In this document: piece after piece, positions 5,041 through 19,472 of the stretch
How positions within the stretch are numbered: the stretch's first letter is position 1
Layout of the letters: every line of letters starts with the position of its first letter
Source: Patescibacteria group bacterium
GTDB taxonomy: Bacteria > Patescibacteriota > Microgenomatia > Levybacterales > UBA12049
NCBI GenBank assembly: GCA_038062315.1
Contig: JBBTXK010000066.1
Span: 1-34,174 of the forward strand
Direction: 5' to 3'
Length of the DNA stretch: 34,174 nucleotides
The notes under the pieces: generated by a model
Database searches by the model: none
What the model saw: only the letters and a program-made list of their open reading frames with translations
What the model was told of the DNA's origin: nothing
Position numbers and translations under genes: made by a program

Positions 5041-6675
5041 ATGGAAAAGAAGTATTTATTGCTTTTAATTATCGTTATACTTGCTGCAATTTTGCGGTTT
5101 TGGCAGTTGGGGATTATTCCAACTGGTGTAACTCACGACGAACTGGGATACATTTACAATTCATACTCAATTGCAAAAACAGGAAGAAATGTATTCGGCG
5201 AGTTTCTACCCTTTCTTACATGGATGAATCAAGGAGGGTGGCCTTTTCTTCCGGTCCCAATTTATTTTTCTATTCCATTTTTTTGGTTGTTTGATTTATC
5301 GGCAACTGTAGGGAGATTGCCTTCTGCCATTCTTGGAGTGGCAGATGTTTTGTTGATTTATATATTAATAAAACAAATTTTTAATAAAACATCTCTTGCT
5401 TTATTGTCTGCTTTTTTTCTCGCTATTTCTCCTTGGCACCTGCATTTTAGTAGATCTGCTTATGATCCAAACTTCGCACTATTTTTTTATCTGCTTGGGA
5501 CTGTGATTTTCATATCGGAAATAAAGTCGAAAAGAATGCCTATTTTTTCAGCAGTATTTTTTTGGCTTGCAATTTTTAGCTATCGAGCTATGAATATCAT
5601 CTTTTTTCCTCTTGTTATTATTTTGATCTGGTACGGGATTGTTGCTCTTAAAGCAAAATATAAACAATTAATCATATTGCTTCTTGGGGTTTTTGTTGTG
5701 GTTGTCTCCTTGGTATTTGCGATTACTACAAATGGGAAAAGGTACATATCAGAAGCGTCGATTGTTAATCAAGCTAAAATGCAGGAGGAACTTGACAATC
5801 AAATTCGTGATGCGCAGGGGCCTCTTTTCCTTCGCCGGATATTTCTCAATAAGCCAGTTTACATAGTAAGTAAGCTTAGAGAAAATTATGTAAAAGCGTA
5901 TTCGCCAGAGTTCCTTTTCCTTTATACGGATCCAAGTAAAATATACTCTATTTGGTCAAGAGGAAGAATTTATTTTATAGATATAATTTTTATTGTTTTG
6001 GGAACTGTGTATTTGTATGCTATCAATAAAAAGGGAGCTTTTTTTATAACATCGCTTTTGCTTATTGGTGGCTTGCCCGGAATGATTGGCGGTACGCCGT
6101 ATTCGGCCCGAAACTTATTGCTATCTGCTGTTTTCCCAGTTTTTTCAGCGGGAGGCGTCTTTTTTTTACTGAATAACCCTTTTTTAATAAAATTCAAAAC
6201 TATAATTATTGCTACAGTTATTTTGACTTATGTTTATTTGTTGGGAAGTTATTTATTCGACTATTATGGTAGATATGCATTGTATGGCGGGGAGGCATGG
6301 GTAAAAAGCCTTAAAGATCTAAGTCTATTAATTACGGAAAATAAAAAGACGCACGATAAAATTATTGTAGGACAAACTTCATTTGGCGATCTAATTCAGT
6401 ATGCATTTTATACCAAGATTAAGCCATCTGATGTACAGAATGCTTGGCAGAAGAGACAGGCAGATATAGGTGAATCATTCTCGATAGATAACGTAATTTT
6501 TACGACACGATGTTTGGATAATAAGACCGGTGGCTTGCCGGCACTTAGGGAATATAAGTCAGTTTTGTATGTTGTGCGCGACGATTGCGCCAAAATGGCA
6601 ACGCCAAGCGCTTTAATTAAAGATTATCCTGGGAATACAATATGGAAAATCTATAATATTGGACATTTATTATGA
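5041..6675 (+). CDS. GT-C fold polytopic membrane glycosyltransferase, PMT/ArnT-like (type-A paralog)
   Basis: LAAILRFWQLG TM1, loop-1 THDELGYIYNSYS (DE motif) and ISPWHLHFSRSAYDPN. The C-terminal soluble domain (HDKIIVGQ..YAFYTKIKPSD) aligns with the other type-A paralogs. Confidence 0.8.
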   Translation: MEKKYLLLLIIVILAAILRFWQLGIIPTGVTHDELGYIYNSYSIAKTGRNVFGEFLPFLTWMNQGGWPFLPVPIYFSIPFFWLFDLSATVGRLPSAILGVADVLLIYILIKQIFNKTSLALLSAFFLAISPWHLHFSRSAYDPNFALFFYLLGTVIFISEIKSKRMPIFSAVFFWLAIFSYRAMNIIFFPLVIILIWYGIVALKAKYKQLIILLLGVFVVVVSLVFAITTNGKRYISEASIVNQAKMQEELDNQIRDAQGPLFLRRIFLNKPVYIVSKLRENYVKAYSPEFLFLYTDPSKIYSIWSRGRIYFIDIIFIVLGTVYLYAINKKGAFFITSLLLIGGLPGMIGGTPYSARNLLLSAVFPVFSAGGVFFLLNNPFLIKFKTIIIATVILTYVYLLGSYLFDYYGRYALYGGEAWVKSLKDLSLLITENKKTHDKIIVGQTSFGDLIQYAFYTKIKPSDVQNAWQKRQADIGESFSIDNVIFTTRCLDNKTGGLPALREYKSVLYVVRDDCAKMATPSALIKDYPGNTIWKIYNIGHLL

Positions 6676-8952: not shown

Positions 8953-10677
8953 ATGAACTTAGCCAAGCCAAAAATTATACTTACAATAATTGTTATGCTT
9001 GCCGCAATTTTGCGGTTTTGGCAGTTGGGAACAAATCCGCTATCTCTTACTTGGGATGAAGCCTCCTGGGGTTATAACGCATATTCTCTAGGAATTGATG
9101 GCCGGGATGAATTTGGAAGATTTCTGCCTTTTGATTATTTAGAATCGTTTGGTGATTTTAAGCCTCCGATGTACGCCTATTTGGATATTGTTCCTATTTG
9201 GATATTCGGGTTAAATGAATTTGCCGTTAGGTTCCCGTCGGCGCTTTTTGGGACATTGACTGTACTTGTTACTTATTTTTTAGTAAAGAGATTGTTTTTT
9301 TCAACGCGAATAAATACGAGTGCCTTGGCATTACTTTCAGCATTTATTTTAGCAATATCTCCTTGGCATATTAATCTTTCTCGGGCGGCATTCGAAGCAA
9401 ATATTGCGACATTTTTTTTGATTTGCGGAGTGTGGCTTTTTTTGTGCGGTGTTTACGAACGAAAATGGTGTCTTGTCTTGTCAATAGCCTCTTTCGTATT
9501 ATCTTTATATACTTTTAACAGCGCCAGGGTTGTTGCCCCTATTTTGGTTTTAATTTTAGGAATAGGCTTTAGAAAAGAGCTCCTAGAACAAAAAAAACAT
9601 GCAATGATAGCATTAGTTGTTGGTATTTTATTAATATTGCCATCACTAAAGTTCTTTCTATCTTCGGAAGCAAACCTTCGTTTTAGAGAGGTTAATATTT
9701 TCTCAGATCCAAAAGTTATTGAAATTGCAAATCAGGAAATTGCAAACGATGGTAATGAATGGTGGTCAAAGATAATTCATAATAGACGATTTGCATATAC
9801 AGTCGCGTATCTAAGACACTATTTTGACAATTTTAACCCCAGCTTTCTTTTTATTAAAGGGGATGGGAATCCTAAATTCTCAACTCAAGATGTCGGACAG
9901 ATGTACTTATGGGATCTGCCGTTTTTAGTCGCTGGAGCATTTGTGCTGCTGCGAAAACGGGAAGGTTGCTGGTGGATAATATCTTTATGGTTGATAATTG
10001 GTATTATTCCGGCTGCTACCGCTCGTGAAACACACCATGCGTTACGAATAGAGGCCGCCTTGCCCACTTTCCAGATTTTGACCGCATATGGAGTTTTCAT
10101 TTTTGTTAATACAATATCAAATATCAATCGCCGATTGAATCTGGGACAAATAGCAAAAATACCTGCTTTGCCGGCAGGCAGGCAGATTAAATATTTAGTA
10201 TTGTCTTTGTGTTTTTTGTTTTTGATCTTTAATTTTTTATATTATTATCATGGTTATTATGCTCATTATCCAAGGGAGTTTTCCGGTGAATGGCAGTATG
10301 GATATAAAGACTCTATAGAATTTGTAGAAACTATCAAGGATGATTTTGATCAAATTAATGTAACGACACTCCTAGGGAGGCCTTATATATATTATCTTTT
10401 TTATACCAAAACCCATCCAGAGGATTTTAGGAGAACTGCGATTGTGCGAGAAGATCCATATGGCTTTACTCATGTAGATGGTTTTGGCGCTTACAAATTT
10501 GGAGATGATTTAAGTAAACTTGACAATGGAAATAAAAGAATTCTCTATGTGAATGTATCAGGCCGTTCTCCAAGAAAGGCAAATATATTTAAAACGGTAA
10601 AGCTATTAAACAATGATCCAGTGTTTACCATTTATGAGATAGTCCACATGCCAGAGGAGGAAAAGAAGAATGAATAA
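8953..10677 (+). CDS. GT-C fold polytopic membrane glycosyltransferase, PMT/ArnT-like (type-A paralog, first of tandem triplet)
   Basis: LAAILRFWQLG, TWDEASWGYNAYS, ISPWHINLSRAAFEAN, ETHHALRIEAALP and a C-terminal domain WQYGYKDSIEF..YYLFYTKTHPEDF..YKFG. Confidence 0.85.
   Translation: MNLAKPKIILTIIVMLAAILRFWQLGTNPLSLTWDEASWGYNAYSLGIDGRDEFGRFLPFDYLESFGDFKPPMYAYLDIVPIWIFGLNEFAVRFPSALFGTLTVLVTYFLVKRLFFSTRINTSALALLSAFILAISPWHINLSRAAFEANIATFFLICGVWLFLCGVYERKWCLVLSIASFVLSLYTFNSARVVAPILVLILGIGFRKELLEQKKHAMIALVVGILLILPSLKFFLSSEANLRFREVNIFSDPKVIEIANQEIANDGNEWWSKIIHNRRFAYTVAYLRHYFDNFNPSFLFIKGDGNPKFSTQDVGQMYLWDLPFLVAGAFVLLRKREGCWWIISLWLIIGIIPAATARETHHALRIEAALPTFQILTAYGVFIFVNTISNINRRLNLGQIAKIPALPAGRQIKYLVLSLCFLFLIFNFLYYYHGYYAHYPREFSGEWQYGYKDSIEFVETIKDDFDQINVTTLLGRPYIYYLFYTKTHPEDFRRTAIVREDPYGFTHVDGFGAYKFGDDLSKLDNGNKRILYVNVSGRSPRKANIFKTVKLLNNDPVFTIYEIVHMPEEEKKNE
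10113..10185 (+). repeat. in-frame mini-element E1: 2x AATATCA, a 15-bp palindrome, a GC hairpin and (GGCA)3
   Basis: AATATCA at 10113-10119 and 10120-10126. TCAATCG-C-CGATTGA at 10124-10138. CCTGC (10162-10166) pairs with GCAGG (10174-10178). GGCA x3 at 10173-10184. Translated as ISNINRRLNLGQIAKIPALPAGRQ; this loop is 12-15 aa longer than in the paralogs at 10670 and 12349. Confidence 0.65.
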
Positions 10678-12352
10678 AAAAAATATTGTTTTCTTAACCC
10701 TGATAGTAATAATAGCGTCTATCTTGAGACTATGGCAGTTAGGCAAAGTTCCTTCATCCCCTGACTGGGATGAGGTTGCATTGGGCTACAATGCGTATTC
10801 GATCATAGAGACAGGTCGGGATGAATATGGCAAGTTTATGCCTCTGTTACTTCGTTCCTTTGATGACTATAAACCGGCACTTTATACATACTTTTCGATT
10901 CCGTTCATAAGCATTTTGGGTTTAAATATCTTTGCTGTTCGTCTGCCCTCTGCTATTTTTGGCATACTGACGGTCGTCGTGACGTACTTTTTAGTGCGAG
11001 AATTATTTAAAGACTCGCGATTTAAATTGGAAGTTGGAAATTGGAAATTGGAAATTCCAGAAGTAACCAGTCTACTTCTGGCTATTTCTCCATGGCATAT
11101 TCAATTTTCTCGTATCGCCTTTGAGTCAAATGTTGCCATGGGGCTTAATGCGATTTCTATCTTGCTTTTTTTAAAAAGTTTTAAAAGACCATTTTTGCTA
11201 CTTTTTGCTGCAATTAGCATGGGGGTAAGTTTTTACATGTACCAAAGCGAGAAAGTATTTGTTCCGCTCCTTCTTATTATTTTAATACTTGTATTTAGAA
11301 AAGAACTTTTTATGATTCCTAAAAAATACAAAGTTGCTTCTGTCGCGATTATATTTTTCATAGCAATACCTATGATATATTATACTTTAACCAATTCCGA
11401 TGCGTTGGCTCGGGCAAAAGGAGTCAGTATCTTTTCTGATCTTACACCCTTTCTGAAAAGGAACGTAGAGAAACTCATAGAAGATAATAACAATAAAGAT
11501 TATTTAGGATTGTTTTTAGACAATAGGAGAATTGAGTTTGCTAAATCTGTAGTATCAGGTTATATTTCGCATTTTGACTTAAATTGGCTGTTTGTTACTG
11601 GCGATATAGAAAGACATCATGCCCCCAATATGGGGCTTTTATATCTATGGGAGCTACCATTTTTATTGATAGGCATGTATAGCCTATTGTTTGGGCCATT
11701 TGATAAGAAAATAAAAATTTTTATCATTTCATGGTTTTTGATAGTGCCTATTCCTGCTTCGGTAACAAGCGGAGTTCCCCATGCTGTACGAGCTCTTAAT
11801 TTTTTGCCGATCTTTCAAATATTTACAGCAATTGGGGTTATTAGTTTTGTAGTATTTATGTCAAATGTAAAATATAAAATAGCAAATATACGAATAGAAT
11901 ATTTGATATTTTATATGTATATTCTATTTTTAACTTTTAATATTTTATACTATCTTAACCAGTATTTTATCCAGCAAAACTACTTTTATTCACAAGCGTG
12001 GCAATACGGCTATAAAGATGCGATTGATTATTTAAACGAAAATCAAGACAAATACGATAAAATTATTGTTTCAAACCAGCCTCATTTAGACCAATCATAT
12101 ATGTTTTTCCTTTTTTATCTTAAATATCCACCGAGCTTATATCAGATAGAGGCAAAAAATTCATCGGGAGGTTTCAGGGAAAATCATAAATTCGGAAAGT
12201 TTGAGTTTAGGCCGATTGTTTGGGATAACGAAATCAAAAGATCAGATATTCTTTATGTAGGCAGACCTCAGGACTTTACAGGCGGTGTGGAAGCAATTAA
12301 AACTATAAATTTTCTCAATGGTAAACCTGCTATTCTAATAGTTACGGGATGA
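10670..12352 (+). CDS. GT-C fold polytopic membrane glycosyltransferase, PMT/ArnT-like (type-A paralog, second of triplet)
   Basis: ILRLWQLG, DWDEVALGYNAYS, ISPWHIQFSRIAFESN, GVPHAVRALNFLP, WQYGYKDAIDY..MFFLFYLKYPPSLYQ..HKFGKFEFRPIVW. The start overlaps the upstream stop by 8 nt. This is the only start in the window with a good upstream GAGGAGG. Confidence 0.85.
   Translation: MNKKNIVFLTLIVIIASILRLWQLGKVPSSPDWDEVALGYNAYSIIETGRDEYGKFMPLLLRSFDDYKPALYTYFSIPFISILGLNIFAVRLPSAIFGILTVVVTYFLVRELFKDSRFKLEVGNWKLEIPEVTSLLLAISPWHIQFSRIAFESNVAMGLNAISILLFLKSFKRPFLLLFAAISMGVSFYMYQSEKVFVPLLLIILILVFRKELFMIPKKYKVASVAIIFFIAIPMIYYTLTNSDALARAKGVSIFSDLTPFLKRNVEKLIEDNNNKDYLGLFLDNRRIEFAKSVVSGYISHFDLNWLFVTGDIERHHAPNMGLLYLWELPFLLIGMYSLLFGPFDKKIKIFIISWFLIVPIPASVTSGVPHAVRALNFLPIFQIFTAIGVISFVVFMSNVKYKIANIRIEYLIFYMYILFLTFNILYYLNQYFIQQNYFYSQAWQYGYKDAIDYLNENQDKYDKIIVSNQPHLDQSYMFFLFYLKYPPSLYQIEAKNSSGGFRENHKFGKFEFRPIVWDNEIKRSDILYVGRPQDFTGGVEAIKTINFLNGKPAILIVTG
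11024..11081 (+). repeat. in-frame mini-element E2: heptamer array (AAATTGG)4.7 plus a 9-bp-stem hairpin
   Basis: AAATTGG AAGTTGG AAATTGG AAATTGG AAATT at 11024-11056. This is followed by CCAGAAGTA (11057-11065), loop ACCAGTC, and TACTTCTGG (11073-11081). Translated as KLEVGNWKLEIPEVTSLL. Confidence 0.9.
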
Positions 12353-14088
12353 TAAAAGAATTTAGAATTAGGAATTTAGAATTAAGAGTTATTGTGTTTG
12401 TAATATGTATTCTTGCAGTGGCTTTGTTTTTACGAATATACTCACTTGATAAAGTTCCGCCCAGTGCTTCATTAGATGAGGTTTCAATTGGTTACAATGC
12501 CTATTCAATCCTCAAGACTGGAGGCGATGAATACGGAAATAAGTTTCCACCGCTTCTGCGCGCGTATGATGATTGGCGGCCAGCATTGTATGTATATTTG
12601 GTGATTCCCTTTATAAAGTTTTTCGACCTTACTGTACTATCTGTTCGTTTGCCTTCAGTTATTCTTTCGGTTTTTACAATTCTTGCTGTTTATTTTTTAG
12701 TAAAAGAAATGTTTAGACGGGAGTTCAAAGCTCAATTCCCGATTCAGTCGGGAACAAAACTCAAAACTGCAGCTCAAAATTCAAAAGTCGAAATAATTGC
12801 GCTTTTTTCTATGTTTTTGCTAGCTATTTCACCTTGGCATATTTATATATCAAGACTTGGACATGAGGTAAATGCCGGCCTTTCTTTTATTGTTTTTGCA
12901 ATTTTATTTTTTATAAAAGCAATCAATAATGCAGGGAAAGGATGGTTTTTAATTTTATCATCTATATTCTTCAGTCTTTCGTTATATACATATCAAAGTG
13001 AAAAAGTTTTTTTTCCCTTAGCGATATTGGTCCTTGGGCTTGTCTATAGAGATAGATTAGTTAAAATTATGAAGTCACTATTAATAGCTGTTATTTTAGC
13101 AGTTATACTTGTTATTCCTATAACGGTATCAACCCTAACTCCGGAAGGTTTAATTCGTTTTAAAGGCACCTCTGCTTTTTTGGAAAATTCTCTCTATCAG
13201 GAAAGCGCCGAGAAAGTTTTAAAATACAAAAATGAGAAAAACGTGTTGGGGCAGATTATTTACAATCGTAGACTAGTGCCTTTGAAAATATTCTCTACAA
13301 ATTATTTATCTCATTTTAGTCCTAAATTTCTTTTTTTCAACAGCGGAAACGAGAGCTTTAAGGCTCCAAGCCTCGGGTTACTCTATATCTGGGAGTTTCC
13401 TTTTTTAATTATTGGATTTATCTATTTGCTTAAATCATTCGGCAAAAAAATTAAACTAATACTTATTCTTTGGGTATTAATTGCCTTTGTTGCGCCTTCT
13501 TTAACAATTGGTTCTCCTCATGCAATGAGAGCGTTTAATGTTTTGCCTGTTCCTCAGATTTTTACAGCTCTTGGTATTTTTTTGTCGATTAATTTTATTA
13601 AAAAATATAAAATTAACCGTTATTTGTTGATCTGTTTTTATGTCTTAGGGCATATTGTTGTTATTTATTTTTTGGGAAGTTTTTATAGGCAGTATTTCTA
13701 TTCCTTCCCAAAAAACCAATCCTCTTCTTTTCAATATTCTTTGAGTAGTTCAATCAGATATGTTCTAGGTATTGAAAAATCCTATGACAAAATCGTTTTT
13801 TCGAATAAGGAAAATCTCTATCAGTCTTATATGTTTTATTTATTTTACAGCAAGTACGATGCTTATCTTTATCAAAAACAAGGCGGAACAGAGTCCGGAG
13901 GATTTGCACAAGAACATAAATTTGGGAAATATGAATTCAGACCAGTTGTCTGGAGCAAAGACCAGCTTATGTCTAACGCTTTGTTTATTGGAAATGTTTC
14001 AGACTTCCCCGGTGATGTGAATTCTGCAAAGAATTTTGCTAACTTGGATGGAAAGGAGGCAATTAAAGTTGTCCATAATAAAGAATAA
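12349..14088 (+). CDS. GT-C fold polytopic membrane glycosyltransferase, PMT/ArnT-like (type-A paralog, third of triplet)
   Basis: SLDEVSIGYNAYS, ISPWHIYISRLGHEVN, GSPHAMRAFNVLP, MFYLFYSKYDAYLYQ..HKFGKYEFRPVVW. ATGA overlap with the upstream gene. Confidence 0.85.
   Translation: MIKEFRIRNLELRVIVFVICILAVALFLRIYSLDKVPPSASLDEVSIGYNAYSILKTGGDEYGNKFPPLLRAYDDWRPALYVYLVIPFIKFFDLTVLSVRLPSVILSVFTILAVYFLVKEMFRREFKAQFPIQSGTKLKTAAQNSKVEIIALFSMFLLAISPWHIYISRLGHEVNAGLSFIVFAILFFIKAINNAGKGWFLILSSIFFSLSLYTYQSEKVFFPLAILVLGLVYRDRLVKIMKSLLIAVILAVILVIPITVSTLTPEGLIRFKGTSAFLENSLYQESAEKVLKYKNEKNVLGQIIYNRRLVPLKIFSTNYLSHFSPKFLFFNSGNESFKAPSLGLLYIWEFPFLIIGFIYLLKSFGKKIKLILILWVLIAFVAPSLTIGSPHAMRAFNVLPVPQIFTALGIFLSINFIKKYKINRYLLICFYVLGHIVVIYFLGSFYRQYFYSFPKNQSSSFQYSLSSSIRYVLGIEKSYDKIVFSNKENLYQSYMFYLFYSKYDAYLYQKQGGTESGGFAQEHKFGKYEFRPVVWSKDQLMSNALFIGNVSDFPGDVNSAKNFANLDGKEAIKVVHNKE
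12358..12385 (+). repeat. in-frame mini-element E3: four heptamers (14-nt unit GAATTTAGAATTA x2)
   Basis: GAATTTA GAATTAG GAATTTA GAATTAA, translated as EFRIRNLEL at codons 4-12 of the 12349 gene. The paralogs lack these roughly 9 N-terminal residues. Confidence 0.7.
12722..12795 (+). repeat. in-frame mini-element E4: heptamers flanking a 7-bp-stem GC hairpin
   Basis: AGTTCAA AGCTCAA (12722-12735). TTCCCGA-TTCAG-TCGGGAA (12736-12754). CAAAACT x2 (12755-12768), GCAGCT, then CAAAATT CAAAAGT CGAAATA (12775-12795). Translated as EFKAQFPIQSGTKLKTAAQNSKVEI. Confidence 0.75.
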
Positions 14089-15584: not shown

Positions 15585-17234
15585 ATGAATTATAGGAATT
15601 TTACTATTCCATTTGCTATAGCATTAATGTCTCTTATTCCTCTTTTGGATCTTTTTCATCCCGGTTTGCCTATAACTCATGACGGGGAAGATCATGTAAT
15701 TCGTGTTGCCAATTTTTATCGAAATCTGGAAGAGGGAAATATGATTCCTCGATGGTCACAAAACCTGAACTACGGATTTGGCCATCCAGTGCTTATGTTT
15801 TTTTATCCTTTGCCATATTATACGGCCTCAGTTTTTCATTTTTTAGGTTTTTCCTTCATTGATAGTACCAAACTTTTTTTTGGAATAACTTACATATTAA
15901 GCGGTATTTTTATGTTTCTTTTTATTAGAAAACTTTATGGAGAAACAGCGGGTATTTTTTCTTCTATGTTGTATCTTTTAGCGCCCTACAGATTTGTTGA
16001 TTTTTATGTGCGAGGGGCGATTGGAGAACACGCGGCATTTCTCTTTGTGCCCCTTACCCTCTACTTTTTAGTAAAGTTTTCTAAGTGTTTTACATTGGGA
16101 AGCTTTATTGGAGCAAGTTTATCTATGGCAGGATTGGTTCTGACGCATAACGCTGTCAGCTTAATGTTTTTACCATTCCTTTTCTTGTATGTAGGTTATT
16201 TAGTGTTAGTATCAAAAGCAAGAAAATCACTCATTTTCACCATGATATGCGTTATGTTGATTGGATTTGGAGTCAGCGCTTTTTTTTGGGTGCCGGGAGT
16301 TTTTGAGGCAAAGTATACTCTTCGCAATATTGTTACGTCTGGAGAATACTCTGCAAGATTTATAAAAGATGTAGCCTCTTTTGCATATGGACATTGGAGT
16401 TATGGTGGCAGCGGCGAATTTAGCGTTCAGATAGGCATAGTGCATTTGTTAAGCGCGCTATCAGTATTGACCGTTTTAATATTTTTGCCTAAAAAAAACA
16501 AGCCCGTTAGGTTAATAGTGCTAAGTTTATGGCTTTATTCGCTTGTCGCTTTATTTCTAATGTTACCAATGTCATCGTTTATATGGCAGCAATTCATTAT
16601 TTTGCAAAACTTTCAATTTCCCTGGAGATTTTTATCGGTCATCGTTTTTACCACGTCTTTCCTTGGCGGCATATTTATCTACGTTATTCCTACACGATAT
16701 AGGGTTTTTATTGTTGTAGCTCTTGGTGTTTCGCTTTTATTAATTAGCAAAGATTACTGGCATGCAAAAGGATATCTAATAAAGAATGACGATTACTTTA
16801 GAGGAGTAAAAAAAACTACAACAAACGATACAGGCGAAAGCTCTCCTATCTGGTCTGTTAGATTTATGGAACATAAACCCAAAGCCTATATAGAAGTAAT
16901 TGATGGAAAAGCGATGATTAGTACAATAAAAAGATCATTAACAGTTCATAGATACAGGTTAACAGCAGTGGAAAAATCACGAATTAGAGAAAATACCTTA
17001 TATTTTCCAGGATGGGAAGTTTTTGTAGACGGCATAAAGCAGGATATAGAATTTCAGGATCCGCAGAATAGGGGGCTTATGACATTTATGGTTGAAAAAG
17101 GAAAACATGCAGTTGACGTACGATTCACGGAGACAAAGTTAAGAATGTTTGCGGATATTGTTAGTTTGGTAAGTATAGTGTTTATAATTGGGCTTTCAGG
17201 TTTTTCAATTGTGAGAAGAAGGCGATCTAATTAA
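15585..17234 (+). CDS. GT-C-like polytopic membrane protein, PTPS-related (COG5617) / YfhO-like (type-B paralog)
   Basis: ATG 15585 lies 1 nt after the upstream stop. It gives an N-terminus co-linear with the paralog at 22122, whereas TTG 15570 of the ORF track does not. Motifs THDGEDHVIRVANF, IPRWSQNLNYGFGHPVLMFFYPLPYY, FQFPWRFLS and C-terminal YFPGWEVFVDG..KGKHAVDVRF. Confidence 0.7.
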   Translation: MNYRNFTIPFAIALMSLIPLLDLFHPGLPITHDGEDHVIRVANFYRNLEEGNMIPRWSQNLNYGFGHPVLMFFYPLPYYTASVFHFLGFSFIDSTKLFFGITYILSGIFMFLFIRKLYGETAGIFSSMLYLLAPYRFVDFYVRGAIGEHAAFLFVPLTLYFLVKFSKCFTLGSFIGASLSMAGLVLTHNAVSLMFLPFLFLYVGYLVLVSKARKSLIFTMICVMLIGFGVSAFFWVPGVFEAKYTLRNIVTSGEYSARFIKDVASFAYGHWSYGGSGEFSVQIGIVHLLSALSVLTVLIFLPKKNKPVRLIVLSLWLYSLVALFLMLPMSSFIWQQFIILQNFQFPWRFLSVIVFTTSFLGGIFIYVIPTRYRVFIVVALGVSLLLISKDYWHAKGYLIKNDDYFRGVKKTTTNDTGESSPIWSVRFMEHKPKAYIEVIDGKAMISTIKRSLTVHRYRLTAVEKSRIRENTLYFPGWEVFVDGIKQDIEFQDPQNRGLMTFMVEKGKHAVDVRFTETKLRMFADIVSLVSIVFIIGLSGFSIVRRRRSN

Positions 17235-17242
17235 GAATTTAA

Positions 17243-18670
17243 ATGAAAAGAAGAATATTAAGTCAGGAGTTTTTTATTTTAGTTTTTATGATTACTTCTA
17301 TTGCCTTTTTACTTTTTTGGGATTTGGGAACAAATTATTTAAACAATTGGGACGAAGCATGGTATGCAGATATCTCCCGCACTATGGCAAAAACAGGTAA
17401 CTTTCTAACCCCTTTCTGGAACAGAGAACCCTTTTTCGAAAAACCACCCTTGTATTTTTGGTCTTCGGTATTGTTCTTTAAGCTATTTAGTATTTCGGAA
17501 TTTTCTGTTCGGCTTACCTCTGCTATTGCCGCTTTTGGCATAGCGTTTGTGACTTATTTTTTAGCTTCGGAGTTTCTTACGAAGAAAACGGGATTAGTGT
17601 CATTAGTTATTTTATTTTCTTCTATTGAATTTTTATACAGAAGTAGAACCGGTAACCTAGATACTCTTTTGACTTTCTTTATGACATCTTCTATTTTTTT
17701 CTTTTTTAAGGCAATAAATACCAACAAAAGATGGTTTAGCGCATTGGGTGTATCTTTGGGTTTGGGATTTCTCGCCAAAGGATTTATAGGCTTTTATCCC
17801 TTGGTGATTATCTTATTATTCTTATGGCTTAATAAGAAATTAGACATACTTTATGATAAACGGTTTCTGCTTGGTATTTTAGTTGCCGTTATTATAGCAG
17901 GAGGATGGCTTTTGTTATATTTTTTGGCAAATGGAGAACCATTTATCAATCAGTTTTTGCTGGCCAATACCGAGAAGTTTGGTTTTAACTCAAATCTATT
18001 GAATAATTTTTCAATAGATTACTTAGGTTATTTAAAAAGCGGTTTGAAAATTTGGTTTCTTTTTGCAGTTTTTAGTTTTGTATACTTATTTACAAAGATA
18101 AAAAATCAAGCAGTATTTTTTCTTTTGATGTATGTTGCGGTTTTTTTGCTTGTTGTGAGTTTTTCTCATGAAAAAAGCAATTGGTTTATTTTACCTTTGT
18201 ATCCTATTCTTTCCCTGACAACAGCTTATGGAATATTATCATTTGCGAAATTCAAAATAAAAAGACTTAAGGCGCTGCTTTTTATTTTTCTCTTTATTAT
18301 TGCGTTATTCCAACTATTTGTATACAGGAAAAGCTATATTGTCCCAAATGTTTCCGCAGATGAGGCAAAGTCCGCTCTTTACGCTAAGAATTTAACAAAG
18401 GAAAATCAACCAATATATTTAACAAATTATTATTATCCAACCGCTGTTTATTATAGTGAGCGTAAAGTTTATGCACTTTATAGTGACCAGGAGAGTAACG
18501 CTTCATGGTGGATAAAATCTAAAAGCCATTGGCTGTATGTTTTTGGGAATAAAAATATAATTATAATCACGACAAAACAGGAGCTCGAAGAACTAAAAGA
18601 AAGATTCCCGCAATATAGAATAAATATATTATTTGTTTCTGGGGATAAAGTTGTCGCAAAAAAGGTATAA
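17243..18670 (+). CDS. ArnT-like GT-C glycosyltransferase (GT83/GT39 type, PMT_2)
   Basis: This is the most canonical member. It carries NNWDEAWYADISRTMAKTGNFLTPFWNREPFFEKPPLYFW, the typical ArnT/PMT_2 N-terminal signature, followed by multiple TM segments and a short soluble C-terminus. Confidence 0.8.
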   Translation: MKRRILSQEFFILVFMITSIAFLLFWDLGTNYLNNWDEAWYADISRTMAKTGNFLTPFWNREPFFEKPPLYFWSSVLFFKLFSISEFSVRLTSAIAAFGIAFVTYFLASEFLTKKTGLVSLVILFSSIEFLYRSRTGNLDTLLTFFMTSSIFFFFKAINTNKRWFSALGVSLGLGFLAKGFIGFYPLVIILLFLWLNKKLDILYDKRFLLGILVAVIIAGGWLLLYFLANGEPFINQFLLANTEKFGFNSNLLNNFSIDYLGYLKSGLKIWFLFAVFSFVYLFTKIKNQAVFFLLMYVAVFLLVVSFSHEKSNWFILPLYPILSLTTAYGILSFAKFKIKRLKALLFIFLFIIALFQLFVYRKSYIVPNVSADEAKSALYAKNLTKENQPIYLTNYYYPTAVYYSERKVYALYSDQESNASWWIKSKSHWLYVFGNKNIIIITTKQELEELKERFPQYRINILFVSGDKVVAKKV

Positions 18671-18680
18671 TTATAACTGT

Positions 18681-19472
18681 ATGCAGACTATTTCGGTGGT
18701 TTTGGCAACGTATAACGAGGAGAAGAATTTGCCATTGTGTTTGAATTCGGTTAGGGATTTGGCAGATGAAATAATAATTGTTGATGGGTCATCGACAGAT
18801 AAAACTGTTGAGATTGCAACAAAGCATGGGGCAAAGGTCAAAGTTGCTGATAATCCTCCGATATTTCACATTAACAAACAAAAGGCCATAGATATGGCAA
18901 CAAAAGATTGGATATTGCAATTAGATGCTGACGAACGCATTACGCCAGAGCTCTCGGAAGAAATAAAAAAAATAATTGGAAATTGGAAATTGGAAATTGG
19001 AAATTCCGACGTAGTCGGCTATTGGGTTCCGAGGAAGAATTGGTTTTTAGGAAGATTTTTAATGAAGGGCGGGCAGTATCCAGATTACACTCTGCGGCTT
19101 TACAAAAGAGGCAAGGGAGGACTTCCTCAGAAAAGTGTTCATGAGCAAGCAGTGGTGAGAGGAAAAGTTGGTTATCTTAAAAATCCCTTGCTTCACTACC
19201 CTTATCAAAACTTCTGGGGATATCTTATTAAATGGAATCGATATAATGGTTTGCTCGCATATGAAATAAAAGAAAAGATGAAAGATAAAAATACCGCTTC
19301 GAAAATTTTATACTCAATGGGATATCTTTTGATAAAACCCTTGCATTGGTTTTTGATAACCTACATTAGGCACAAAGGCTTTTTGGACTCCTGGCAGGGA
19401 TTTTTGTTTTCAGTGTTTTCTGCTTTAAGGTTCCCTGTAGCGTATATAAAGTATTTAAGACTTAAGTCTTAA
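18681..19472 (+). CDS. GT2 family glycosyltransferase
   Basis: ATG 18681 (MQTISVVLATYNEEKNL) is preferred over the ORF-track start 18633, which overlaps the upstream gene. Motifs IIVDGSSTDKT, LQLDADE (DxD) and FLGRFLMKGGQYPDYTLRLYKRG. Contains the in-frame heptamer array at 18973-19005. Confidence 0.85.
   Translation: MQTISVVLATYNEEKNLPLCLNSVRDLADEIIIVDGSSTDKTVEIATKHGAKVKVADNPPIFHINKQKAIDMATKDWILQLDADERITPELSEEIKKIIGNWKLEIGNSDVVGYWVPRKNWFLGRFLMKGGQYPDYTLRLYKRGKGGLPQKSVHEQAVVRGKVGYLKNPLLHYPYQNFWGYLIKWNRYNGLLAYEIKEKMKDKNTASKILYSMGYLLIKPLHWFLITYIRHKGFLDSWQGFLFSVFSALRFPVAYIKYLRLKS
18973..19018 (+). repeat. in-frame mini-element E5: heptamer array (AAATTGG)4.7 plus a short hairpin
   Basis: TAATTGG AAATTGG AAATTGG AAATTGG AAATT at 18973-19005, then CCGAC-GTA-GTCGG at 19006-19018. 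The 35 nt 18973-19007 match 11024-11058 at 33/35 positions. Translated as IGNWKLEIGNSDVVG in the GT2 gene. Confidence 0.9.

Follow-up and report, generated by a model that had tools for sequence, protein, structure and literature searches.

In-frame AAATTGG arrays abutting hairpins in two glycosyltransferase genes of a groundwater Levybacterium, and their counterparts across bacteria

Two heptamer arrays in a glycosylation island

The DNA analysed here, called the window below, is a stretch of 34,174 nucleotides (contig JBBTXK010000066.1 of assembly GCA_038062315.1) that represents a glycosylation island of a groundwater Levybacterium, a member of the Patescibacteria or Candidate Phyla Radiation (CPR). 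It holds about ten PMT_2/GT-C paralogues together with GT2 and GT4 glycosyltransferases (GTs), an epimerase and a flippase-like gene, nearly all of them on the + strand, and its GC skew is positive throughout. Our subject is a tandem array of the heptamer AAATTGG (array 1) that lies inside one of the GT-C genes and runs directly into a hairpin, and a second array of the same unit (array 2), likewise flush with a hairpin, in a GT2 gene (Table 1). The combination of heptamer array and adjacent hairpin is not confined to one gene or one genome but exemplifies a widespread architecture.

Table 1. Coordinates of the arrays, hairpins and host genes in the window
Feature	Positions	Strand	Description
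Array 1, (AAATTGG)x4.7, 33 nt	11024-11056	+	in frame; encodes KLEVGNWKLEI
Hairpin 1	11057-11081	+	arms CCAGAAGTA (11057-11065) and TACTTCTGG (11073-11081); 7-nt loop ACCAGTC
Extended quasi-palindrome	11051-11088	+	GAAAT of the last array unit (11051-11055) pairs with ATTTC (11084-11088)
Host gene 1, GT-C-fold membrane glycosyltransferase (GT39/PMT_2-like), 560 aa	10670-12352	+	Pfam PMT, PMT_2
Array 2, (AATTGGA)x4.6, 32 nt, perfect	18974-19005	+	in frame; encodes (I)GNWKLEIGN
Hairpin 2, CCGAC / GTA / GTCGG	19006-19018	+	flush with array 2
Host gene 2, GT2 glycosyltransferase, 263 aa	18681-19472	+	ATG at 18681; Glycos_transf_2 E = 8.5e-21
Degenerate period-7 array, units GAATTTA, GAATTAG, GAATTTA, GAATTAA	12356-12391	+	encodes KEFRIRNLELR

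Array 1 consists of the units AAATTGG, AAGTTGG, AAATTGG and AAATTGG and a final AAATT, the sole mismatch being A>G at 11033, and Tandem Repeats Finder (TRF) reports it with period 7, 4.7 copies, 92% matches and a score of 59. It lies within the open reading frame (ORF) 10670-12352, where the segment is translated as FKDSRFKLEVGNWKLEIPEVTSLLLAISPWH and encodes the peptide KLEVGNWKLEIPEVTSLL directly upstream of LAISPWH. The array terminates in GGAAATTCC, and the hairpin that starts flush with its end has arms of 9 nt that are 100% complementary in an inverted-repeat search. On this point the sequence, TRF and the inverted-repeat search all agree with the initial annotation of this DNA, which had described a 33-nt AAATTGG array and a perfect 9-bp hairpin in a GT-C gene. 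The right arm of the hairpin falls on the conserved LLLA(ISPWH) codons, and the ATTTC that forms the outer stem corresponds to the conserved A-I-S codons. Folded as DNA, the 39 nt at 11050-11088 reach -9.5 kcal/mol with z = -5.7, a value equalled by none of 200 shuffles; the fold is this strong because GAAAT of the last array unit also pairs with ATTTC.

By itself hairpin 1 is not significant, as the initial annotation had cautioned: the whole window contains three perfect stems of at least 9 bp with loops of 3-8 nt, against 2.5 expected. Its flush placement is significant. Calculated from the stem rate of the window, the chance that a 9-bp hairpin begins no more than 2 nt from a given point is about 4e-4. 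The window contains 10 matches to the unit pattern, where 1.6 would be expected, and 10 or more were reached in none of 100 shuffles. The 57 nt of array 1 and its hairpin are identical in two more independent assemblies, from wells H32 and H51, which differ from the window by 5-7 single-nucleotide polymorphisms (SNPs); we conclude that array 1 is not an assembly artefact.

The protein that carries array 1 is a GT-C enzyme whose orthologues bear the name GT39 in Levybacteria. Its AlphaFold model (predicted template-modelling score 0.83) matches AglB, STT3, ArnT and PglB, and the assignment to the GT-C class is borne out by W33, D34 and E35 (DE motif, first external loop), which are invariant. 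The model folds residues 119-128, encoded by the array, into a short beta-hairpin (KLEV-GN-WKLE) between two helices, with a predicted local distance difference test (pLDDT) score of about 81-84. This loop lies between the third and fourth helices and, if we assume canonical GT-C topology, presumably faces the outside of the cell. For the upstream neighbour, a search for an exact protein match found none.

Array 2, which the initial annotation had missed along with the outer stem GAAAT/ATTTC, has a unit identical to that of array 1 and likewise terminates in GGAAATTCC; TRF gives it period 7, 4.6 copies and 100% matches. Hairpin 2 folds at -4.0 kcal/mol (z = -2.2) and is weak alone, 5-bp stems being frequent (about 0.9% per base). 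The mechanical ORF of the GT2 host begins further upstream, at TTG 18633. We compared window positions 16625-19458 with positions 1-2822 of contig L208 (Hain_H51_02um_R2, same well, coverage 2). From 16625 to about 18928 the two are 100% identical; past about 18928, identity falls abruptly to about 60-70%, within the GT2 gene at the conserved LQLDADE codons. This breakpoint lies 45 nt upstream of array 2, and the GT2 gene of L208 has no array (DIKNQSI). The break is either a real recombination mosaic or a between-strain chimera in one assembly.

Period 7 recurs elsewhere in the window: 16 of its 28 TRF rows have period 7 or 14. One of these, the degenerate array at 12356-12391 (period 7, 5.1 copies, 75% matches; period 14, 1.9 copies, 100%), supplies the first codons of the next GT-C paralogue and thereby an N-terminal extension absent from the other paralogues.

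Empty, short and long alleles at the two loops

Since the arrays lie inside conserved genes, a base-by-base alignment of empty, short and expanded alleles is possible. At the array 1 loop we compared 120 GT-C orthologues. About half carry an empty allele in which FLVKELFKRx is joined directly to DIALLSSFLLAISPWH, and KLEIGNWKLEIPEV is present in P0019, P0034, P0056 and P0071. A short allele, P0020 (L127), has KLEIPEV only (DNA AAA TTG GAA ATC, AAATTGGAAATC) and is exactly 21 nt, or three units, shorter than the alleles of the window and L129. Other orthologues have degenerate versions of the array or the peptide FSIFNFQFSI; the latter is encoded in L126 by (AATTTTC)n, at the same total length. 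The initial reading of the segment as an insertion relative to its relatives is upheld by these alleles, and a loop of equal length that lacks repeat structure was not seen among the 120 orthologues. Its companion statement, that the type-A paralogues at 3, 5041 and 8953 are roughly 8-10 residues shorter here, stands only in part: paralogue loops are indeed shorter, but the range is 6-11 residues, and the closest GT-C paralogue (12349-14088), overlooked at first, has a loop longer than that of the array 1 host.

The hairpin is linked to the array at the level of codons. In place of the array and left arm, the empty allele L125 reads GAC ATA GCA TTA TTA; the left-arm codons PEV replace ALL with length unchanged, and PEV-like codons occur only in GT-C alleles that have an array or an array remnant. 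This bears out the earlier proposal that the right arm lies in conserved coding sequence, to which the left arm is complementary. L129 and L127 preserve the stem, each with a single G.T pair, and at the same site the empty allele L125 is unstructured (z = +1.7). The empty GT-C allele does hold, at the downstream position, an exact inverted array unit, AATTTCC, within the conserved GCA ATT TCC.

The GT2 orthologues display a parallel series. L209 has a short allele, KIGN-SVNGYW (AAAATTGGAAATTCC, 1.6 units), with a palindrome CCGTTAACGG flush with ATT at the same position as hairpin 2, so that a flush palindrome is already there in the unexpanded allele. The L210 allele, KIGNWKLEIGNSVNGYW, is exactly 21 nt longer than that of L209. 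Other GT2 orthologues have NRQSSIVNRQS or NHKSSIINHKS in the same loop, which read back as the units AATCGTC and AATCATM. The 21-nt quantum is thus seen twice, between L127 and the window/L129 in the GT-C gene and between L209 and L210 in the GT2 gene, and all GT-C and GT2 orthologue differences are in-frame multiples of 21 nt. Judged from these comparisons of orthologous sequences, both window arrays appear to be insertions into variable loops. Empty, short and long alleles coexist at orthologous sites; the short ones look like precursors, but could also be contractions.

Both loops also house other material. At the GT-C loop (equivalent to window 11010-11070), non-heptamer inserts in P0014, P0023, P0029, P0036, P0041, P0078, P0087 and P0101 encode FDSAQDK, LRLRSGQA, PFDFAQGK, TSEVF and SKQIQNT...YKILNT. 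From their sequence, these inserts look like translated GC-rich palindromic repeat elements, and the loop seems generally prone to taking up small insertions. At the GT2 loop (window 18970-19020), hairpin-like segments (PASPRGE, PKPGTGGQ or VSRRNGIPQAAG) are nested within the heptamer array in the orthologues P0133, P0144, P0135, P0209, P0219 and P0232, as in NWRL-PASPRGE-EIRN, and may constitute a second insertion layer.

AAATTGG arrays across bacterial genomes

A scan for the exact 21-mer (AAATTGG)x3, with one genome per species, gave at least 120 loci/species. The matches listed are mostly from Patescibacteria; they also include Nitrospira/Nitrospirae, Acidobacteriota, Gemmatimonadota, Planctomycetes, Bacteroidota, Bdellovibrionales, Chloroflexia and uncultured Gammaproteobacteria, and some loci have 60-69% GC. 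The figures that follow refer to 123 arrays (in one case 116) among these matches. Ninety-eight of the 123 lie in open spans of at least 150 aa, a share equal to that of random positions, with no intergenic bias. Their host ORFs are mainly housekeeping genes, including class I aminoacyl-tRNA synthetases (11), GT4 (8), MnmA (3) and two each of LigA, UvrD, Mur ligases, Fmt and PolA; essential hosts among the listed loci include leucyl- and isoleucyl-tRNA synthetase (LeuRS and IleRS), LigA and GatA. Relative to the host gene, 76 arrays are antisense and 22 sense, a bias inseparable from gene orientation, and arrays read in the antisense direction encode PISNFQF. Array lengths have modes at 25-27 and 30-32 nt (about 4-4.6 units), in coding and non-coding DNA alike.

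The arrays share an end more than a beginning. Their start phase is variable, and hairpins and flanks are locus-specific, leaving only the unit in common; the end phase is ...GGAAATT in 68 of 123 (55%), where one in seven would be expected. The dinucleotide that follows this end is CC in 21% of cases against a background of 7%, a 3-fold enrichment of the junction GGAAATTCC. Twelve of the 123 arrays (9.8%, against 0.53% in controls, or about 18x) have a perfect stem of at least 8 bp that starts between -2 and +3 nt relative to their 3' end, and stems of at least 6 bp are found at the 3' end in 21% against 3.9%. The flush position that the initial annotation had singled out as the outstanding feature of array 1 is significant in the window and recurs in other genomes. 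Among 116 arrays, 20 are followed within 70 nt by an exact inverted unit, and a single array is preceded by one. A test for decay on the distal side detected a weak period-7 excess (0.367 vs 0.314) and no in-register decay, and we do not claim growth from one end.

Two aminoacyl-tRNA synthetases illustrate how arrays and hairpins sit in conserved proteins. In LeuRS, the array replaces a variable loop following the SSWYYLRY motif; this motif itself is the array-distal arm of the hairpin, and the array-proximal arm falls in the variable part. The LeuRS arrays of four Saccharibacteria stay perfect while their flanks diverge. In IleRS, compared with what we take to be the canonical protein, both hairpin arms lie over native positions and length is unchanged (KTITD/AVIVK). 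The LeuRS of one Saccharibacterium (L015, 2178-3287, - strand) has two separate segments derived from heptamers, ISNFQFPIS after SSWYYLAY and, further downstream, ISNFQFSI...SKQRQNSKIQNQ. The first of these LeuRS arrays and its hairpin are kept at one site in four species (L015, L052, L102 and L095).

A census of perfect arrays with at least 3 copies in 836 kb of loci chosen by the AAATTGG query, a biased sample, counted 189 arrays of period 7, against 1, 3, 8, 1 and 2 for periods 5, 6, 8, 9 and 12. Sixty-three of the 189 carry about 40 other units. In viral contigs, AAATTGG is found at 11 loci, against 37 for AAAATTG, 15 for AAAGTTG, 10 for AAATCCC and 6 for AATATGG; because other heptamers are as common or commoner there, we do not regard AAATTGG as a special sequence of unique abundance. 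The unit does have one unusual property: none of its six frames contains a stop. Counting the complementary strand, only 2 of 30 unit classes of its composition (AAATTGG and AATATGG) are stop-free on both strands, as are 35 of 192 unit classes with 5 A/T. GAAAATT, by comparison, contains TGA, and in L126 only its stop-free orientation occurs.

Origin of the arrays

We propose, with modest confidence, that the arrays are heptameric simple sequence repeats (SSRs) that sit in frame in insertion-tolerant loops and were expanded by slippage from a hairpin-flanked proto-repeat. The starting point would have been a chance proto-repeat of about 1.6 units (AAATTGGAAATT; KLEI in the GT-C protein, KIGN in the GT2 protein) directly next to a sequence able to form a hairpin. 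As the DNA was replicated, the nascent strand, ending in ...GGAAATT at the foot of the hairpin, would slip back 7 nt and be extended again, and in coding DNA only gains of three units (21 nt, 7 residues) would be retained. On this reading, only three-unit alleles are seen because other gains break the reading frame, and AAATTGG arrays persist in gene-dense, AT-rich genomes because the unit is stop-free in six frames. The extra residues are modelled as a small surface beta-hairpin and are probably close to neutral. Arrays of other heptamers at the GT-C and GT2 loops fit local seeding better than one mobile sequence. Slippage as the process, stalling at the hairpin and any involvement of the lagging strand are our inferences. 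If most genes run in the direction of replication, the 76:22 antisense bias would be compatible with hairpin formation on the lagging-strand template; this link stays conjectural because neither GC nor AT skew can separate replication bias from transcription bias.

Several observations weigh against slippage as the whole explanation. Slippage was never directly observed: no length variant of array 1 was found among the three assemblies, a thin sample, and when Joint Genome Institute (JGI) metagenomes were scanned with flank anchors separated by a variable gap, the 23 matches were all unrelated chance hits, none of them an array 1 allele. The 123 and 116 arrays counted above were chosen by the query unit, which biases prevalence; hairpin enrichment was not significant for arrays of other units (n=63); and the antisense bias is unexplained. 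Arrays in essential genes imply that several units were gained in one event rather than by single-unit slippage, and classical single-unit slippage does not predict a length distribution peaked near 4 units. The left hairpin arm (PEV for ALL) needs about 5 coordinated base changes, and its occurrence only alongside arrays suggests a templated fold-back event, for which stalling alone would be insufficient. Multi-unit gains, peaked lengths, a fixed phase, polarity and array-linked codon conversion together exceed simple slippage and leave room for a specific process.

Such a process might be polar and anchored at the hairpin, writing about three heptamers and an inverted copy of adjacent native sequence in one event. 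We regard this as rather unlikely; if true, it would mean that new peptide segments arise, in many phyla and even in essential genes, through a mutational mechanism or an enzyme activity not recognised so far. The Ripley model describes quasi-palindrome template-switch mutagenesis, and a switch of this kind would explain why the array-proximal arm complements conserved codons with length unchanged (PEV for ALL; KTITD/AVIVK in IleRS). To our knowledge, quasi-palindrome template switching is not known to make tandem heptamers, and its connection to the arrays is our own supposition.

Another reading is a dedicated writing or insertion activity, in which a telomerase-like enzyme, a reverse transcriptase, a snap-back polymerase or a tiny mobile element would place about three GGAAATT units and an inverted copy of the sequence next to them at hairpin sites, throughout the genome and in many phyla. 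It would accommodate the same unit in at least 120 species, genomes of 60-69% GC among them, the fixed end, the enriched junction and a length peak near 30 nt. The polar order of array, hairpin and inverted unit, with a proximal arm that is array-linked and replaces native codons, also speaks for it, as do the one-step gain of several units that essential genes demand and the nesting of hairpin-like inserts such as PASPRGE. We nevertheless think it unlikely, given that nothing beyond the unit is conserved: there are no terminal inverted repeats or target duplications, the hairpins are locus-specific, and short alleles of 1.6 units with a flush palindrome exist. Heptamer units other than AAATTGG are numerous and, in viral contigs, just as frequent; we identified no candidate enzyme, and a scan of the whole window against Rfam matched no family. 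Rickettsia palindromic elements (RPEs), which are 100-150 bp long, have a conserved sequence and lie in frame in protein-coding genes, offer a partial precedent. Like RPEs, the arrays are in-frame repeats in surface loops of conserved, even essential proteins and include a hairpin-forming part; unlike RPEs, they have only a 7-nt unit in common, and their hairpins differ from locus to locus.

Repeats in glycosyltransferase genes, and 7-bp repeats in the hmw promoters, are classical phase-variation devices of Haemophilus. Like the SSRs in the lipooligosaccharide (LOS) glycosyltransferase genes of Haemophilus and Neisseria, the window arrays have a unit that is not a multiple of 3 within surface-glycan GT genes. 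They could accordingly be read as a programmed contingency locus, in which selected hypermutable tracts switch GT paralogues and vary the surface glycan: both lie in GT genes of an island with about ten GT-C paralogues, GT4, GT2 and PMT_2 recur among the hosts, and since the unit is 7 nt long, a change by one unit shifts the frame. If the arrays slip in vivo, they would indeed also switch the many glycosyltransferase paralogues of the locus. As an account of why the arrays exist, however, this is quite improbable, and a dedicated role in phase variation is unlikely. Haemophilus and Neisseria contingency loci differ in that, here, no length polymorphism or off allele was found and copy numbers are low (4.7 copies would be few for a fast switch). 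With hosts such as LeuRS, IleRS, LigA, Mur ligases, Fmt and GatA, the off state would probably be lethal. It is the arrays in essential genes, the identical lengths in three assemblies and the orthologue steps, all in-frame multiples of 21 nt, that disfavour phase variation. A frame break is possible, if ambiguous, at 3 of 123 arrays. The clearest is gatA in L051 (5928-6593, - strand), which is split into two frames exactly at the AAATTGG array at 5994-6023. The split may reflect either a genuine frameshift in this essential gene or an indel error; the latter is plausible for a long-read assembly, which we take this metagenome-assembled genome (MAG; MFD04408) to be from its name.

Selection for a functional element, either the peptide KLEIGNW as a beta-hairpin or an RNA or DNA structure made of GGA-rich repeats and a stem-loop, seems to us very unlikely. 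An ordered beta-hairpin is modelled with pLDDT >80, the fold has z = -5.7, orthologues retain the stem, G.T (G.U) pairs included, and arrays stay perfect amid diverged flanks. Set against this, the segment is missing from half of the orthologues, others have unrelated units or the opposite orientation at this site, most arrays are antisense and give PISNFQF instead, and the hosts are unrelated proteins. The stem differs by two substitutions only, too few for covariation, and the window has no Rfam match. An assembly or sequencing artefact is hardly credible despite European Nucleotide Archive (ENA) contig coverage of 2-4x and the mosaic breakpoint 45 nt upstream of array 2, since two wells and three assemblies yield the same 57 nt, both arrays keep the frame with conserved protein segments on either side, and the same architecture is found in MAGs of many studies and assemblers.

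Heptamer repeats are oddly abundant in bacteria, as has been known since 1990 and 2007, with no mechanism established. Rehm et al. 2015 (PMC4692102) state that heptameric SSRs are over-represented in many bacterial genomes, citing Mrazek et al. 2007. The Xanthomonas GGGAATC and Nostoc GGGGA(T/C)T arrays treated there prefer four units, often as convergent inverted pairs, are biased to non-coding DNA and to no particular gene class, and are discussed as G-quadruplex formers; polymerase slippage, favoured at period 7, has been hypothesised as the cause of heptamers (PMC4692102). AAATTGG arrays resemble the Xanthomonas and Nostoc heptamers and the cyanobacterial short tandemly repeated repetitive (STRR) sequences in their 7-nt unit, dispersed arrays of about 4 units, inverted partners and period-7 excess. 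The unit itself is similarly built from a G run, an A run and a T run, and it has the core ATTGG in common with Nostoc ATTGGGG. In contrast to the Xanthomonas and Nostoc heptamers, about 80% of AAATTGG arrays lie inside ORFs, in frame, in genomes with little non-coding DNA, and a quadruplex is unlikely because there is only GG per unit. Further differences from published heptamer arrays are the flush, locus-specific hairpin and the fixed end phase, neither of which we found described for such arrays in the literature. Literature searches for the AAATTGG unit itself returned only eukaryotic NF-kB-type sites, those for heptamer repeats in Patescibacteria/CPR listed no paper with a heptamer-repeat term, and those for STRR or small dispersed repeats returned no mechanistic paper.

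The in-ORF repeats of Borgs, whose units are multiples of 3 nt, provide another comparison. Like them, AAATTGG arrays are perfect repeats that arise de novo in ORFs, add peptide and evolve fast and independently from site to site; unlike them, they have a 7-nt unit that keeps the frame through three-unit steps. The product is also modelled as an ordered beta-hairpin, in contrast to the disordered regions that Borg repeats create according to PMC9879509. In small, gene-dense genomes, the 21-nt quantum, the end phase, the flush hairpin and the inverted partner provide testable constraints on a mechanism. The arrays also explain recurrent segments of the KLEIGNW/PISNFQF type in predicted proteins of uncultured bacteria, and in annotation such segments should be treated as repeat-derived loop insertions rather than as motifs.

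Further arrangements occur. Non-coding DNA of several non-CPR MAGs (L029, L038, L040, L058, L084 and L086) has two copies of the array facing each other across a spacer in inverted orientation, and full inverted arrays are found in L029, L038, L040, L058 and L084. In L038, L049, L066, L088 and L116, a conserved AGCCGTTCACGGCT-like hairpin is flush on the opposite, 5' side, and inverted pairs with such a 5'-side hairpin may form a distinct subfamily. At four loci, blocks of different heptamer units, with about 4-5 copies each, adjoin one another (L038 4764-4822, L055 4577-4640, L036 750-820 and L077 347-431); some of these blocks differ by one base, such as AACCTAC followed by AACTTAC, which gives the impression that one unit mutated and was then amplified anew as a block.

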